IMG/VR virus record: IMGVR_UViG_2534681626_000009
Span: 1-5,298 of that record
Reading direction: 5' to 3' (one strand)
Source: a virus
Taxonomy: Duplodnaviria > Heunggongvirae > Uroviricota > Caudoviricetes
Length of the DNA stretch: 5,298 bases
Positions 1-5,298 of this stretch are shown in pieces. Made by a program: the position numbers and the translations under genes. The notes under the pieces were generated by a model. That model did not search any database, had not been told where the DNA came from, and was given only the letters and a program-made list of their open reading frames with translations. How positions within the stretch are numbered: the first letter of the stretch is position 1; every line of letters starts with the position of its first letter.

Positions 1-717
1 ACTATCACTGAAATTAATACGCCAACCCGTGGCTGGGTTTCGGTAACTAATCCTGCTGCGGCTACTGTTGGCTCTCCGGCAGAAACTGATGCTGAGTTAC
101 GTATCCGCCAGTCGCAAAGTGTTGCGTTGCCATCAATAACCCCATTTGAAGCACTGGATGGTGCTGTTTCTAATGTTACCGGTGTAACCCGCCACAAACT
201 CTATGAAAACGATACTGGTTCGGAGGACGGTAACGGGTTACCGCCACACTCTGTTGCTGTAATTGTGGATGGCGGTGATGTGACGGATATTGCTCAGGCT
301 ATTAGAGGGAATAAAGGCCAGGGGACAGCCACTCACGGTAGAACATCCGTTACGGTTCCGGATAAATACGGCAATCCCCATGTAATCAAATTCTCGCGTT
401 CCAGTGATGTACCTGTTTATGCCCGGATTAAATTAAAAGTTTTTACGGGTTATACCTCACAGATAGGGCAGCAGATCCAGCAGGCTATTTCCGACTATAT
501 CAATAGTCTGATGATTGGTGATTCGGTCCTTTTAAGTCGCATTTACTCACCGGCGAATCTTGGCGTGGTGAGTGGCGGGAATGCACGCTATTACGATATT
601 CAGGAACTGACGATTGGGAAATCCCCGGGGGCTTTGTCGTCATCAAACATTGATATCAGATACAACGAATCTGCGTCCTGTACACCGGAAAATATCGTTA
701 TAACGGTGGAGTCATGA
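1..717 (+). CDS. Baseplate J-like protein (P2 gpJ / Mu gp47 family), C-terminal portion; 5' end lies outside the window
   Basis: The reading frame is open from base 1 with no stop until TGA at 715-717; the ORF track starts at a TTG at 127 only because the window truncates the gene. Family assignment is from gene order (immediately upstream of a tail protein I gene and a tail-fibre gene) and general resemblance, not a search. The stop overlaps the next start as ATGA at 714-717. Confidence 0.7.
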   Translation, partial: TITEINTPTRGWVSVTNPAAATVGSPAETDAELRIRQSQSVALPSITPFEALDGAVSNVTGVTRHKLYENDTGSEDGNGLPPHSVAVIVDGGDVTDIAQAIRGNKGQGTATHGRTSVTVPDKYGNPHVIKFSRSSDVPVYARIKLKVFTGYTSQIGQQIQQAISDYINSLMIGDSVLLSRIYSPANLGVVSGGNARYYDIQELTIGKSPGALSSSNIDIRYNESASCTPENIVITVES

Positions 718-1394
718 GCAAATACACCGAACTGATCACGAACTACCACGCCACCAAACCTAAATTTCTTGCACATGTTGATCTGATGACCCGGCCGCTT
801 ATTGATGTTGCGGCTGCCACCAGAGGGCTGATTACTGCATTTGATATTGACTCTGCGGTTGGTGTGCAACTTGACATTCTTGGATTGTGGATCGGACGTA
901 GCCGTGTTGTCAGCCAGCCTATCTCAGGTGTCTATTTCAGCTGGGATACCGACGGGCTTGGATATGATCATGGTGTATGGCAGGGGCCATACGATCCTGA
1001 TTCCGGATACATGTACCTCAGCGATGAAACTTATCGTGTCATCCTTAAAGCGAAGATTGCGATTAATAACTGGGACGGACGGAATGATTCGCTTCCAGCA
1101 ATTCTTGACGCGGCGACAGCAGGATCCGGACTGCGAATGCAGATAGTCGATAACCAGGACATGACGATATCGGTCTGGCTCTTTCCTGATACTGATATTT
1201 CAGATGTATCGCGTGAGTTAATTGCTGCAATTAAACAGGGATATCTCACAGTAAAAGCCGCCGGGGTTTGGGCGGGTGGCATTGAAACACCTTCGGTGGA
1301 AACTCCATCGGAAGGTTCAAAATTTTTTGGTTTTGATATGGATAACGAATTCATCAGTGGTTTTGATGTAGGGGCATGGGGAGTATTACTCTGA
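714..1394 (+). CDS. Phage tail protein I (P2 gpI / Mu gp48-like baseplate-tail-fibre connector)
   Basis: 226-aa ORF sitting between the J-like gene and the tail-fibre gene, the conserved J-I-H order of P2/Mu-type baseplate modules. Start ATG overlaps the upstream stop (ATGA); stop TGA at 1392-1394 overlaps the next start (TGATG). Confidence 0.75.
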   Translation: MSKYTELITNYHATKPKFLAHVDLMTRPLIDVAAATRGLITAFDIDSAVGVQLDILGLWIGRSRVVSQPISGVYFSWDTDGLGYDHGVWQGPYDPDSGYMYLSDETYRVILKAKIAINNWDGRNDSLPAILDAATAGSGLRMQIVDNQDMTISVWLFPDTDISDVSRELIAAIKQGYLTVKAAGVWAGGIETPSVETPSEGSKFFGFDMDNEFISGFDVGAWGVLL

Positions 1395-2026
1395 TGGCGA
1401 AAAATGACTTTAAAGCGTTTGCAACTGATCGGAATGCCAATGTTATGTCGCAGGAGGAATGGGAAGCGTTGCCTGCGCTTTTATCCGGATTTACAGCAGG
1501 GAAAGCATCCAGTGCGCAAGTCAATAAGGTTATTCGGCAGGCCAGCTTTATTGCTGCAGCTCTGGCCCAGTTTGTAAGTGACAAAACGCAACGGGATGTG
1601 CTTGATAATGGTGATCTGCCCGGTTTTGTTGAATTGCTGGGATCGGGGTTTGCTGTTGAATACCTGAGCCGCAAGAATCCGTTTGGTGATATCAAATCGG
1701 ATGGCGCGGTGAAAACGGCTCTCGAAAACCTTGGTTTGGGAGAAGGTGCTAACTGGGTTATGTTACCTGGAGGAATGATAATTCAGCGTGTTTATCTTGG
1801 ATTTCCTGTCGGCACCAATGTAAGACACATAACTTTCCCCCGGTCGTTTACAACAACGAACTATTCAATCTCAATTAACTGGAATGATATCGGTACTGCA
1901 ACAACTGAAACACAATCTCCAGCAAATGTGGCGGTTGTTCATCAAACAAAATCATTAACAGGGGCCAGCATCTGGCAGGCAGGTCCCGGGGGATTTAATG
2001 TGGACATTATAGCGGTGGGGGATTGA
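1394..2026 (+). CDS. stfP: Tail fibre protein: constant N-terminal region (to about 1747) fused to variable C-terminal receptor-binding module A
   Basis: I placed the start at ATG 1394 rather than the track's 1376 because of the TGATG overlap with the upstream stop and a GGGGAG about 12 nt upstream. The N-terminal portion (118 aa from this start, 124 aa from the track start) is identical to the N-terminus of the reverse-strand ORF 3030..3905, and the two diverge exactly at the crossover site. The symbol is tentative, based on order and size matching e14 stfP as I recall it (about 209 aa). Confidence 0.75.
1719..1744. other. Site-specific recombination crossover site, hix/gix/cix/pix-like (left site)
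   Basis: The sequence CTCTCGAAAACC-TT-GGTTTGGGAGAA has imperfect dyad symmetry (9 of 12 positions per half) around a central TT at 1731-1732. It carries the GAAAACC..GGTTT core that I recall from Hin/Gin/Cin/Pin sites (hixL from memory: TTCTTGAAAACCAAGGTTTTTGATAA). It sits exactly where the two tail-fibre variants diverge. Confidence 0.7.
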
Positions 2027-2027
2027 T

Positions 2028-2456
2028 ATGTACGTATGGAGCGCTAAAGCAAATGGCTTTTTCCCCATAGCGGAGAAAGAAAAATTTGAGGCATCAGGTA
2101 TGTGGCCTGATGATGGTGTAATAGTCAGTGAAGAAGAACATAAAAAGTTATTTATGGATATTCCACCAGGAAAACAGATTGGAACACAGAATGGAAAACC
2201 AGCACTGATAGATATTCCTCAGCCGACCAAAAAGGAATTAATCGCTATTGCTGAAGTTAAAAAATCCCAATTACGGGAAAAAGCTGACAGTGAAATATCC
2301 TGGCGTCAGGATGCTGTTGATGCTGATATCGCAACTGATGAAGAAACTTCAACTCTCACCGAATGGAAGAAATACCGTGTGCTGCTGATGCGTGTTGATA
2401 CTTCAACAGCACCCGATATTGAATGGCCTACGCCTCCGGCAGTTCAGGCCAGATGA
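2028..2456 (+). CDS. tfaP: Tail fibre assembly protein (Tfa / Mu U-like chaperone) for module A
   Basis: 142-aa ORF starting 1 nt after the tail-fibre stop (TGA-T-ATG) with GGGG about 8 nt upstream. The C-terminal motif [11 protein letters not shown] is shared with the convergent partner ORF. Position directly after a tail-fibre variable region is typical of Tfa genes. Symbol tentative. Confidence 0.75.
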
Positions 2457-3033
2457 CATCCGGCGCGGTGCTGGTATCTGTTACCGTCACCGCGTCAATG
2501 TAATCCAGCACGGCGTTAAGTCGGGTTGTTTCTGCCTGCGTCAGCTTCCGCCCGGCCTGTAATTTCAGTTGAATCAGACTGATGGAAGCCATTGCAGTAT
2601 CCATCAGCGACTGGCGCTGTGCTTCTGCTGCATCTACTGCGGCGCTATGCTGTGCCTCGGTATCCGTCACCCATTTCTCACCATTCCATTTATCGTATGG
2701 CGTTAACGGGGCGATAGTGGTTGTATTATCAGGGTAATCCCCCGGAGCTGTGATTTCTTTTGATTCTCCCGTTTCGGTGTTATAGACAACTTCACCGCGA
2801 TGATCTGGCACATATTCCCATGAGTTAAAATCTGCCGAACGGCAGATTGCATAACCAGCCTTATGTGTGCCAGGAGCATCTAAACAGGAATATGCGGGGA
2901 TACCGACACCCACAGCAAGATATTCAATTGATGCAGAAATATACTCCCGTGTCTCACTGTCATAGTTATAAACGGTAATCTCTCCTGCCTTTGTGGCAAT
3001 AAATTTATTATTTAAGATGGCGTTATACATCAT
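2428..3033 (-). CDS. tfaE: Tail fibre assembly protein (Tfa / Mu U'-like chaperone) for module B
   Basis: 201-aa ORF on the minus strand whose start overlaps the stop of the upstream minus-strand tail-fibre ORF (ATGA at 3030-3033). C-terminal motif [11 protein letters not shown]. It is convergent with the plus-strand Tfa gene and overlaps it by 29 bp (2428..2456). Symbol tentative, from the size match to e14 tfaE (about 200 aa). Confidence 0.75.
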
Positions 3034-3905
3034 GCAGCCCTCACAATGTAATTAAATGAAATATTACGTGGGCGTGTCTCTGCTGCACCGACAATACTGG
3101 TACTCAACCCCGTTGCCGTTCGTTTGTTATTTTTATTTCCTTCAATCAAACAGTTGTAATCATCATTACCAATTAACGAATTGGTGGCATCAATACTGTC
3201 CGGGGACAAGGCATTAGTTGTGGAACTTAAAGTCAGCATCTCGTCTGAACTTGGAAGATTTTTTAATGGTGTTTCATTGCGTGAAATACCCGCGTAAAAA
3301 AAGGACTCATGCCTGTGAGCTTCAAAAGAGTCATCCTGAAGACTTAGCAAGGCTCGCCCCGCATCCACTCCACGTCCATCATCCCAGCCACGAATAAATT
3401 CACCGCGTAAATCAGGCAATTTATTGGTCGGGTAAGCCTTTGCCAGTTCCGGGTATTCTTCAGCAGAAAAAGCCGCACCATTGCATTTCAGCCAGCCTGT
3501 TGGCGGAGTGGCTGAAGGCCACGGAACAGGGACACCAACAGGTAATGCAGAGCCTTCTCCCAAACCAAGGTTTTCGAGAGCCGTTTTCACCGCGCCATCC
3601 GATTTGATATCACCAAACGGATTCTTGCGGCTCAGGTATTCAACAGCAAACCCCGATCCCAGCAATTCAACAAAACCGGGCAGATCACCATTATCAAGCA
3701 CATCCCGTTGCGTTTTGTCACTTACAAACTGGGCCAGAGCTGCAGCAATAAAGCTGGCCTGCCGAATAACCTTATTGACTTGCGCACTGGATGCTTTCCC
3801 TGCTGTAAATCCGGATAAAAGCGCAGGCAACGCTTCCCATTCCTCCTGCGACATAACATTGGCATTCCGATCAGTTGCAAACGCTTTAAAGTCATTTTTC
3901 GCCAT
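3030..3905 (-). CDS. stfE: Tail fibre protein: same constant N-terminal region fused to alternative variable C-terminal module B (carries the conserved tail-fibre tip motif)
   Basis: Minus-strand ORF whose N-terminal portion is identical to that of 1394..2026, followed by a different 173-aa C-terminus containing [10 protein letters not shown]...YPELAKAYP...[17 protein letters not shown], which I recognise as the conserved motif of T-even gp37 / lambda Stf / Mu S / P2 H fibre tips. Start chosen at the mirror of 1394. Symbol tentative. Confidence 0.7.
3555..3580. other. Site-specific recombination crossover site, hix/gix/cix/pix-like (right site, inverted orientation)
   Basis: TTCTCCCAAACC-AA-GGTTTTCGAGAG is the exact reverse complement of the left site. 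The inverted orientation is what invertase-mediated inversion, rather than deletion, requires. Confidence 0.7.
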
Positions 3906-4585
3906 CAGAGTAATACTCCCCATGCCCCTACATCAAAACCACTGATGAATTCGTTATCCATATCAAAACCAAAAAATTTTGAACCTTCCGATGGAGTTTC
4001 CACCGAAGGTGTTTCAATGCCACCCGCCCAAACCCCGGCGGCTTTTACTGTGAGATATCCCTGTTTAATTGCAGCAATTAACTCACGCGATACATCTGAA
4101 ATATCAGTATCAGGAAAGAGCCAGACCGATATCGTCATGTCCTGGTTATCGACTATCTGCATTCGCAGTCCGGATCCTGCTGTCGCCGCGTCAAGAATTG
4201 CTGGAAGCGAATCATTCCGTCCGTCCCAGTTATTAATCGCAATCTTCGCTTTAAGGATGACACGATAAGTTTCATCGCTGAGGTACATGTATCCGGAATC
4301 AGGATCGTATGGCCCCTGCCATACACCATGATCATATCCAAGCCCGTCGGTATCCCAGCTGAAATAGACACCTGAGATAGGCTGGCTGACAACACGGCTA
4401 CGTCCGATCCACAATCCAAGAATGTCAAGTTGCACACCAACCGCAGAGTCAATATCAAATGCAGTAATCAGCCCTCTGGTGGCAGCCGCAACATCAATAA
4501 GCGGCCGGGTCATCAGATCAACATGTGCAAGAAATTTAGGTTTGGTGGCGTGGTAGTTCGTGATCAGTTCGGTGTATTTGCTCAT
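3905..4585 (-). CDS. Phage tail protein I, mirrored second copy (identical to 714..1394)
   Basis: Translation is identical to the plus-strand copy and it lies in the right inverted-repeat arm. Whether this is a real second copy or an assembly fold-back is uncertain. Confidence 0.55.
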
Positions 4586-5298
4586 GACTCCACCGTTATA
4601 ACGATATTTTCCGGTGTACAGGACGCAGATTCGTTGTATCTGATATCAATGTTTGATGACGACAAAGCCCCCGGGGATTTCCCAATCGTCAGTTCCTGAA
4701 TATCGTAATAGCGTGCATTCCCGCCACTCACCACGCCAAGATTCGCCGGTGAGTAAATGCGACTTAAAAGGACCGAATCACCAATCATCAGACTATTGAT
4801 ATAGTCGGAAATAGCCTGCTGGATCTGCTGCCCTATCTGTGAGGTATAACCCGTAAAAACTTTTAATTTAATCCGGGCATAAACAGGTACATCACTGGAA
4901 CGCGAGAATTTGATTACATGGGGATTGCCGTATTTATCCGGAACCGTAACGGATGTTCTACCGTGAGTGGCTGTCCCCTGGCCTTTATTCCCTCTAATAG
5001 CCTGAGCAATATCCGTCACATCACCGCCATCCACAATTACAGCAACAGAGTGTGGCGGTAACCCGTTACCGTCCTCCGAACCAGTATCGTTTTCATAGAG
5101 TTTGTGGCGGGTTACACCGGTAACATTAGAAACAGCACCATCCAGTGCTTCAAATGGGGTTATTGATGGCAACGCAACACTTTGCGACTGGCGGATACGT
5201 AACTCAGCATCAGTTTCTGCCGGAGAGCCAACAGTAGCCGCAGCAGGATTAGTTACCGAAACCCAGCCACGGGTTGGCGTATTAATTTCAGTGATAGT
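4582..5298 (-). CDS. Baseplate J-like protein, mirrored second copy (identical to 1..717); 5' end outside the window
   Basis: Reverse complement of 1..717, with the frame open to the window edge. Same uncertainty as the other mirrored copy. Confidence 0.55.
   Translation of the reverse strand, partial: TITEINTPTRGWVSVTNPAAATVGSPAETDAELRIRQSQSVALPSITPFEALDGAVSNVTGVTRHKLYENDTGSEDGNGLPPHSVAVIVDGGDVTDIAQAIRGNKGQGTATHGRTSVTVPDKYGNPHVIKFSRSSDVPVYARIKLKVFTGYTSQIGQQIQQAISDYINSLMIGDSVLLSRIYSPANLGVVSGGNARYYDIQELTIGKSPGALSSSNIDIRYNESASCTPENIVITVES

Follow-up and report, generated by a model that had tools for sequence, protein, structure and literature searches.

The closest described relative of the locus analysed here is the P segment of the E. 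coli K-12 prophage e14, which is inverted by PinE (stfP/ycfK, tfaP, tfaE, stfE and pinE). This Pin/pix switch was described in 1985. PinE, PinQ and PinR all invert the e14 P segment, which has a length of 1,797 bp and TTGGTTTGGGAGAAGG repeats (PMC12529663), and both states of the segment are found together in clonal MG1655-derived cultures (PMC4272514). The G segment of phage Mu (S/U vs. S'/U'), inverted by Gin, resembles the present locus in having a single constant fibre N-terminus outside the segment and two alternative, convergent C-terminal modules, each with its own chaperone; it shares with the pix system 26-bp sites of the Din consensus, a short true inverted repeat and an adjacent invertase gene. 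The Mu segment is about 3 kb in size, and Mu fibres are much longer than those described below. The core dinucleotide is GA in the Mu gix site (TTCCTGTAAACC GA GGTTTTGGATAA) but AA in pix (published site table). The C segment of phage P1, inverted by Cin, is also a Din-family switch of tail-fibre C-termini and uses related 26-bp cix sites. In P1, long (0.62 kb) inverted repeats lie within the invertible segment, with cix at the outer ends.

Such switches also leave their mark on genome assemblies. Prophages Phi1, Phi2 and Phi4 of strain EC958 have, like the present locus, 26-bp crossover sites and alternative modules with a tail-collar domain, but their fibres are P2-like, their site sequences are different and their repeats are longer and imperfect (PMC4134206). 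Both orientations were present in clonal EC958 cultures and the assemblies gave alternative contigs, mixed tail-fibre orientations being a source of alternative contigs and of a risk of artefactual duplications (PMC4134206).

Here, we analysed a 5,298-bp stretch of DNA (the window), which is one entire whole-genome-shotgun contig, APYR01000052.1, of the draft E. coli assembly GCA_000358795. From its letters, a first-pass annotation had proposed an invertase-type tail-fibre switch, in which a constant fibre N-terminus was present twice and two identical sites acted as recombination partners.

Results

The window opens with the 3' part of a baseplate J/gp47 gene (1–717, plus strand) that is truncated by the contig end and is collinear with a RefSeq CDS annotated 'baseplate J/gp47 family protein' in the finished genomes L001, L002 and L004. 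This is followed on the same strand by a DUF2612/baseplate wedge-1 gene (714–1394; Pfam PF11041, E = 2.8e-46, and RefSeq annotation of relatives) and by codons 1–118 of a tail-fibre gene (1394–1747), the constant part that precedes the invertible segment up to the crossover. The last 80 bp of this constant part are 95% identical to e14 stfP. Two convergent cassettes come next, such that the layout of one constant N-terminus and two module/chaperone pairs is present as judged by open reading frames and Pfam. Module A (1748–2026, plus strand) encodes fibre residues 119–210 and matches Pfam Gp53-like_C weakly (E = 1.1e-4, under the gathering score), and it is followed by a tail-fibre assembly chaperone gene in the TfaP position (2028–2456, plus strand; Pfam Caudo_TAP, E = 3.4e-34). 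Module B (3030–3551, minus strand) encodes residues 119–291 and matches Pfam Collar (E = 2.9e-15) and, weakly, the short-tail-fibre receptor-binding domain S_tail_recep_bd (E = 1.6e-3), while its chaperone gene (2428–3030, minus strand; Caudo_TAP, E = 5e-32) is a TfaE orthologue. The 3' ends of the two tfa genes overlap by 29 bp. Between them, RefSeq annotation, Pfam and comparison with K-12 e14 account for all genes of the window. An Rfam scan of the window gave no match at the gathering score.

The predicted fibres are 210 and 291 residues long, have residues 1–118 in common and then continue with A and S, respectively, which agrees with the earlier description of proteins that are identical up to the site. 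The two modules had also been described as very dissimilar, and a protein comparison of A with B detected no similarity. Their short length, which had been thought unusual, is not, as K-12 StfP has 209 residues and the same switch genes are annotated in many E. coli RefSeq genomes. The domain content suggests a receptor-binding role: module B has a collar and a weak receptor-binding match, and module A weakly matches a gp53-like C-terminus. In a comparison with the e14 proteins, as had been advised, module B is 55% identical to K-12 StfE and has a chaperone 89.5% identical to K-12 TfaE over 200 aa; module A is unrelated to the C-terminus of e14 StfP and has a chaperone only 33% identical to K-12 TfaP. 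The window matches e14 in gene order and in the 29-bp tfa overlap, and the distance between site centres is 1,836 bp in the window vs. 1,827 bp in e14. The constant regions differ, with a DUF2612 wedge protein in the window and the DUF2313 protein YmfQ in e14, which show no similarity, and only about 80 bp to the left of the crossover site are in common between e14 stfP and the window.

Two identical 26-mers are found at 1719–1744 and, reverse-complemented, at 3555–3580; none would be expected by chance (200 shuffles). On the plus strand, the first reads CTCTCGAAAACC TT GGTTTGGGAGAA; on the minus strand it reads TTCTCCCAAACC AA GGTTTTCGAGAG, and when compared with curated recombinase sites, as had been advised, it matched the published e14 pixL at 26 of 26 positions. 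Its crossover centre (TT, 1731–1732) falls in codon 113 of the fibre gene, confirming that a crossover site lies inside the fibre reading frame, and the same sequence occupies the same reading-frame position in K-12 e14 stfP (L003, 4779–4804). Both window sites have the expected architecture, with a 2-bp core between 12-bp half-sites of imperfect symmetry, and fit the dix consensus. The imperfect dyad symmetry noted earlier amounts to 9 of 12 half-site positions (counted by hand). The site at 3555–3580 (plus strand) is not pixR but a second written copy of pixL (26/26) in the flipped state, with the constant region joined to module B. The two identical inverted sites reported earlier do exist, but they are not recombination partners, both being pixL. 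A search of the window for pixR (TTCTCCCAAACC AA CGTTTATGAAAA) that allowed up to 3 mismatches found no copy.

These sites proved to be merely the inner tips of a far longer structure. Positions 1–1746 and 3553–5298 are 100% reverse complements of each other along their full 1,746 nt. They extend to both ends of the window, and 1,806 bp of unique sequence lie between them. Thus, the second arm (3553–5298, minus strand) is a mirror copy of the fibre constant part, the DUF2612 gene and the baseplate J gene. Since the arms are perfect reverse complements, the two sites represent a single stretch (pixL and the genes upstream of it) that has been written out twice, and the identical N-termini of the two fibres are a trivial consequence of the mirror. 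The long internal inverted repeats of P1 were considered as a model and rejected, as the 1,746-bp repeat of the window lies beyond the sites and has them at its inner ends; this long repeat is judged artefactual, and the real one measures 15–16 bp.

Finished E. coli genomes contain a different arrangement. In these, the segment is bordered by pixL on one side and by pixR and pinE on the other, and the constant fibre part is present once, continuing into module A in L001 and into module B in L004, L005 and L007, contrary to the anatomy of two constant copies and two partner sites that had been claimed. In K-12 e14 and five finished relatives, pixL lies within the fibre gene and pixR (26/26) immediately ahead of pinE; pixR was at its expected position in all six finished genomes checked (26/26; L001–L005, and L007 by context), and the true pixL/pixR inverted repeat of the finished relatives is only 15–16 bp. 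The pinE gene directly follows pixR in L001, L002, L004, L005 and L007, and L008 has a DNA invertase gene, whereas open reading frames, Pfam and gene calling revealed no serine invertase gene in the window. The absence of pixR from the window is explained by the contig itself, which puts a mirror of the left flank in place of the flank that carries this site.

Natural inversion was evident among the relatives. L002 and L005 carry the same prophage, in both cases at the yfhH site. The flanking sequences match at 100% over 4,870 and 3,128 bp, and the 1,937 bp in between are 99.7% identical in inverted orientation, with overlaps of 20 bp at the sites. L001 and L007 have the A/B module pair in opposite states, and in L007 the silent module A adjoins pixR and pinE. 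The constant-B junction was present in 562 complete genomes and the constant-A junction, at 80% or greater query coverage, in 23, such that both orientations, with breakpoints at the sites, are represented by both genome pairs and by both junction types. The invertase-type switch of a known class that had been recognised from the letters is therefore upheld by the 26/26 pixL match, by pinE in relatives and by near-identical prophages that differ by an exact inversion.

The window as a whole was not found in any of 5,426 complete E. coli genomes (search criterion, ≥80% covered on one strand), and the best single-strand coverage in any of them was 62%. Its parts are real: 1–3047 is collinear with L001 (state A), 2415–5298 with L004 and L005, and 1726–2709 with L007 (state B). 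The 3' arm diverges from real genomes directly after the central AA at 3567–3568. At k ≥ 19, some k-mers of the contig are missing from state A alone and others from state B alone, while every one is found in the union of both states.

Discussion

We consider the locus very probably to be the invertible P segment of a Pin/pix system (a Din-family serine invertase) in an e14-related E. coli prophage with a contractile tail, and we assign a probability of roughly 0.85 to the contig being a draft-assembly chimera that joins both orientations, in which the mirrored arm is artefactual and stands where pixR and pinE lie. In the real layout, baseplate J, DUF2612 and about the first 113 fibre codons would form a single constant block that ends at pixL. 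The ~1.8-kb segment beyond it would carry modules A and B as convergent cassettes, each together with its own Tfa chaperone, and would end at pixR, with the invertase gene pinE immediately after. Cleavage of pixL and pixR by Pin at the central dinucleotide would invert the segment, joining module A or B, with the respective chaperone, in frame to the constant N-terminus and giving the fibre a different receptor-binding tip. From its relatives, the source strain can be presumed to carry pixR and pinE. The inversion that had been proposed to swap C-terminal modules is thus right in mechanism, the relatives being inverted at these sites, but inversion of the window as drawn would alter nothing, because its two constant copies keep both fibres complete.

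The mirror would have arisen when the assembler followed a path that left the constant region by the A junction, crossed the segment and, by way of the B junction, re-entered that constant region on the opposite strand. Such a walk implies that the sequenced DNA held both orientation states. We infer that the most likely source is a single culture of mixed orientation, in which the two states were present side by side; the contig would then be indirect evidence that the switch was flipping there. The alternative contigs of EC958, unlike the two states in the window, were recognised and kept unmerged (PMC4134206). A real repeat exceeding the assembler's k, collapsed in a de Bruijn graph, was also considered and rejected, given that the true pixL/pixR repeat is 15–16 bp and that at k ≥ 19 the contig needs k-mers of both states.

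Both states could instead have come from two prophage or tail-module copies in one genome, fixed in opposite orientations and collapsed by the assembler, with no ongoing inversion. Related tail modules are often present more than once (the median genome has 2 matching places, and the maximum is 10), and two fixed copies would satisfy the k-mer requirement equally well. They would, however, need to be 100% identical over at least 1.7 kb and over the entire interior, whereas related modules compared across genomes differ by 2–5%, and the coexistence of states in clonal cultures is the documented norm for e14-type segments. We therefore regard two fixed copies as unlikely.

Less likely still is that the mirror is a real inverted duplication, generated by an intermolecular pixL × pixR exchange between sister copies, which would leave both fibres permanently complete. 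On paper, this exchange yields exactly such a product, the predicted junction at the central dinucleotide is the point at which the window leaves real genomes, and the window itself holds nothing against it. If true, the strain would have two constant regions and express both fibre variants together, the switch being 'both on'. However, none of the 5,426 complete genomes has such a duplication, and in a chromosomal context it would amount to a dicentric or inverted-dimer product. Wild-type Din invertases (Hin, Gin and Pin) are, moreover, strongly restricted to intramolecular inversion by the Fis-enhancer invertasome. A perfect 1.7-kb repeat is also beyond a short-read draft assembler, so the contig is no evidence for two physical copies, and the two arms share their terminal base, as they would if a single graph node had been passed through twice. 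Finally, a fold-back chimera from library preparation or amplification, formed without site-specific recombination, is scarcely credible: such chimeric reads can give perfect hairpin contigs, and the EC958 authors checked contig ends for hairpin artefacts (PMC4134206), but the window has no fold-back point, with 1,806 bp of unique sequence between its arms, and its inner junctions, which coincide precisely with a published recombinase site, are natural ones known from 23 and 562 finished genomes.

The chimeric contig has consequences for how draft assemblies are read. A perfect mirror contig around a unique core of ~2 kb marks an invertible segment sequenced in both orientations. It creates false duplications, in this case of the baseplate J gene, the DUF2612 gene and the full-length fibre gene, and conceals the true neighbours, pixR and the invertase gene. 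The terms 'palindromic contig' and 'hairpin contig' were not found in the literature searched. A check for whole-contig palindromy is advisable before paired sites in draft assemblies are interpreted.

Biologically, the system is the already known e14-type switch and nothing new, and it would be predicted to alter host range. The relatives of the window have the same pixR as e14, and PinE of L001 and L002 is 96.7% identical to K-12 PinE. Because of this high identity, a Fis-bound recombinational enhancer is likely to lie in the 5' part of the relatives' pinE. The prophage position differs, being beside yfhH or pphA in the relatives vs. icd for e14.

A mirror-image contig with the inverted sites at the inner ends of its arms

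A repeat search showed that positions 1–1746 are 100% reverse-complementary to 3553–5298 over 1,746 nt, up to both ends of the window, with just 1,806 unique nt (1747–3552) separating the mirror arms. All genes left of 1746 (the 3' part of baseplate J, DUF2612 and the fibre N-terminus) have mirrored second copies on the right. The first-pass annotation had proposed a serine-invertase tail-fibre switch, pointing to identical inverted 26-bp sites and to two fibres that stop being alike at these sites. The sites are indeed present, as CTCTCGAAAACC TT GGTTTGGGAGAA at 1719–1744 and its reverse complement at 3555–3580 (chance expectation for this 26-mer in the window, none), and they form the inner tips of the 1,746-nt repeat, the identity of which ends 2 bp past them. 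The predicted proteins likewise bear out the divergence: fibre 1 (1394–2026, plus strand, 210 aa) and fibre 2 (3905–3030, minus strand, 291 aa) have residues 1–118 in common and then diverge, A vs. S. Their shortness, which had been considered unusual, is unremarkable because K-12 StfP is 209 aa.

The constant fibre part comprises codons 1–118, with the crossover TT at 1731–1732 in codon 113. Module A (residues 119–210) weakly matches a gp53-like C-terminus, and the next gene encodes a Caudo_TAP chaperone. Module B (residues 119–291) combines a tail-collar domain with a weak match to a receptor-binding domain of short tail fibres; the gene after it encodes a TfaE orthologue (89.5% identical).

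Crossover sites and gene order in finished genomes

Recombinase-site comparison, as the first-pass annotation suggested, was made with a published Din-family table in which pixL is TTCTCCCAAACC AA GGTTTTCGAGAG and pixR is TTCTCCCAAACC AA CGTTTATGAAAA (PMC3241671). Both window copies matched pixL at 26/26 positions, and no match to pixR was found in the window with up to 3 mismatches. In K-12 e14 and four other finished E. coli loci (L001, L002, L004 and L005), the fibre gene contains pixL, and a pixR matching at 26/26 positions sits just ahead of the invertase gene pinE. Read rightwards, the window agrees with these real genomes through ...CCTTCTCCCAAACCAA and departs directly past the central AA, where it continues with the pixL outer half and the reverse-complemented constant region, whereas the real genomes continue with CGTTTATGAAAA and pinE. 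The true pixL/pixR inverted repeat is only 15–16 bp, TTGGTTTGGGAGAAGG, the same one as published for the e14 P segment (PMC12529663).

A megablast search of 5,426 complete E. coli genomes located the tail module in prophages. In NZ_LR890651 (L001) and NZ_LR882978 (L002), baseplate J and DUF2612 come first, followed by a short fibre gene plus tfa on the forward strand and by another tfa gene plus a 'phage tail protein' on the reverse strand. Next comes pinE (site-specific DNA recombinase), the product of which is 96.7% identical to K-12 e14 PinE. The phage record vB_EcoM-611R5 has a matching layout with a DNA invertase gene. This record (ON470588.1; noted regions 8121–8435 and 10164–10749), labelled a 'complete phage genome', ends with the host gene yfhH and has a DNA invertase CDS of only 315 bp; it looks like a prophage region plus host flank with a truncated or mis-called invertase.

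In finished genomes, pixR lies within a short leader ORF, MPFA(C/R)YF.IFINVGLGEG... (L001 8528–8578; K-12 e14 6606–6656), a part of the system absent from the window. It supplies the 'silent' module with its own start codon, and annotations call the product stfE or 'phage tail protein'. For K-12, an anti-T2 function was assigned to a pixR-side chimera of this type in a 2025 paper (PMC12529663).

Inversion of the segment and origin of the mirror

Strains E2980 (L002) and ETEC-2264 (L005) carry the same prophage at the yfhH site, with flanks 100% identical over 4,870 and 3,128 bp and a middle 1,937 bp that is inverted (99.7% identity); at each site the matches overlap by 20 bp. For the module pair carried by the window, L001 joins the constant part to module A (state A). 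Strain E423 (L007) has pinE, pixR, a silent module A, both tfa genes and a fibre in which the constant part is fused to a B-type module. Among complete genomes, the constant-A junction occurred in 23 and the constant-B junction in 562. PinE, PinQ and PinR invert the e14 P segment, both states of which occur among deposited genomes (PMC12529663); clonal MG1655-derived cultures hold the two states together (PMC4272514).

Window positions 1–3047 are collinear with state-A L001, and 2415–5298 with state-B L004 and L005. We built both states in silico from the window constant part, the interior and the L001 pixR/pinE flank. At every k from 19 to 127, some right-junction k-mers were missing from state A alone and some left-junction k-mers from state B alone, and no contig k-mers were missing from the union of the two. 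Thus, the contig, which is the whole of APYR01000052.1 (5,298 bp; draft NCBI assembly GCA_000358795.2; traced by an exact protein match, the fetched locus being identical to the window), cannot be spelled from a single orientation. Its path leaves the constant region via junction A, crosses the segment and, through junction B, re-enters that constant region on the other strand. Both arms end at the identical base (1 and 5298), as would be expected if a single graph node were traversed twice. The base lies inside the baseplate J gene, away from a gene boundary; these ends probably mark a repeat boundary common to the J gene of another prophage in the same genome. We infer that both states coexisted in one culture of the source strain, which would carry pixR and pinE and have the constant region at 1x depth.

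As a source of the mirror contig, a pair of prophage copies, each fixed in a different state, is improbable. A genuine inverted duplication produced by pixL x pixR exchange between molecules is more doubtful still: the mirrored baseplate block was found in neither L001 nor L002, and the whole window on one strand in 0 of the 5,426 complete genomes at 80% coverage (best, 62%). A library fold-back chimera is the least credible of the three. The same two-orientation situation, in other tail-fibre switches of E. coli prophages, was described in the EC958 genome paper, which warned that merged alternative contigs give 'artefactual duplications in phage regions' (PMC4134206). The invertible switch is supported as a mechanism, and its mirrored anatomy in the window is judged an assembly artefact, with pixL at both sites, a spurious second arm and pixR absent.

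By analogy with the established Hin/Gin/Cin/Pin mechanism, Pin would bind pixL and pixR as dimers and cut the central dinucleotide with a 2-bp stagger, and strand exchange inside one supercoiled molecule would flip the segment. One module-chaperone cassette would then be expressed from the constant N-terminus, the other remaining silent beside pinE. Judged from domain content only, the switch may change host range.

Relation to the e14 P segment

The locus is the e14 P-segment system itself, with the same sites, gene order and orthologous TfaE/StfE cassette and, in relatives, a near-identical invertase; the Pin/pix tail-fibre switch is already known, and the practical lesson of the window concerns mirror-image contigs. 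The locus differs from e14 in module A, in integration sites and in its tail, which has a DUF2612 wedge protein where e14 has DUF2313 YmfQ. Left of pixL, only ~80 bp are in common with e14 stfP (window 1667–1746 vs. e14 locus 4727–4806, 95% identity), a limit that fits the long-known mosaic nature of fibre cassettes. The remaining constant region and baseplate genes are unrelated to e14. The pix-bearing linker appears to act as a portable adaptor through which one and the same switch cassette can join different tails.

Homology with K-12 e14, as well as with many P2-like phages of Escherichia, Salmonella and Klebsiella, begins abruptly at 2394 or 2415, in the 3'-terminal part of the chaperone gene for module A (noted region 2394–2456; mirror-independent interior 2394–3082). 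There the two convergent tfa genes have a 29-bp overlap and each encodes a ...TSTAPD(I/V)xWP... tail; the position resembles a recurrent mosaic breakpoint at which fibre and chaperone cassettes are swapped. In ETEC-2264, the expressed fibre B gene (4519–5250) is shortened, at 732 bp vs. 876 bp, and two annotated fragments take the place of an intact silent gp53-like module (6428–6816), reflecting either decaying switch cassettes in the strain or sequencing errors in the record. In one APEC genome (NZ_CP126934.1, 1485113–1490512), the match spans ~5.4 kb in four pieces, and an InsQ/TnpB-family element is annotated inside the matching tail-fibre region.
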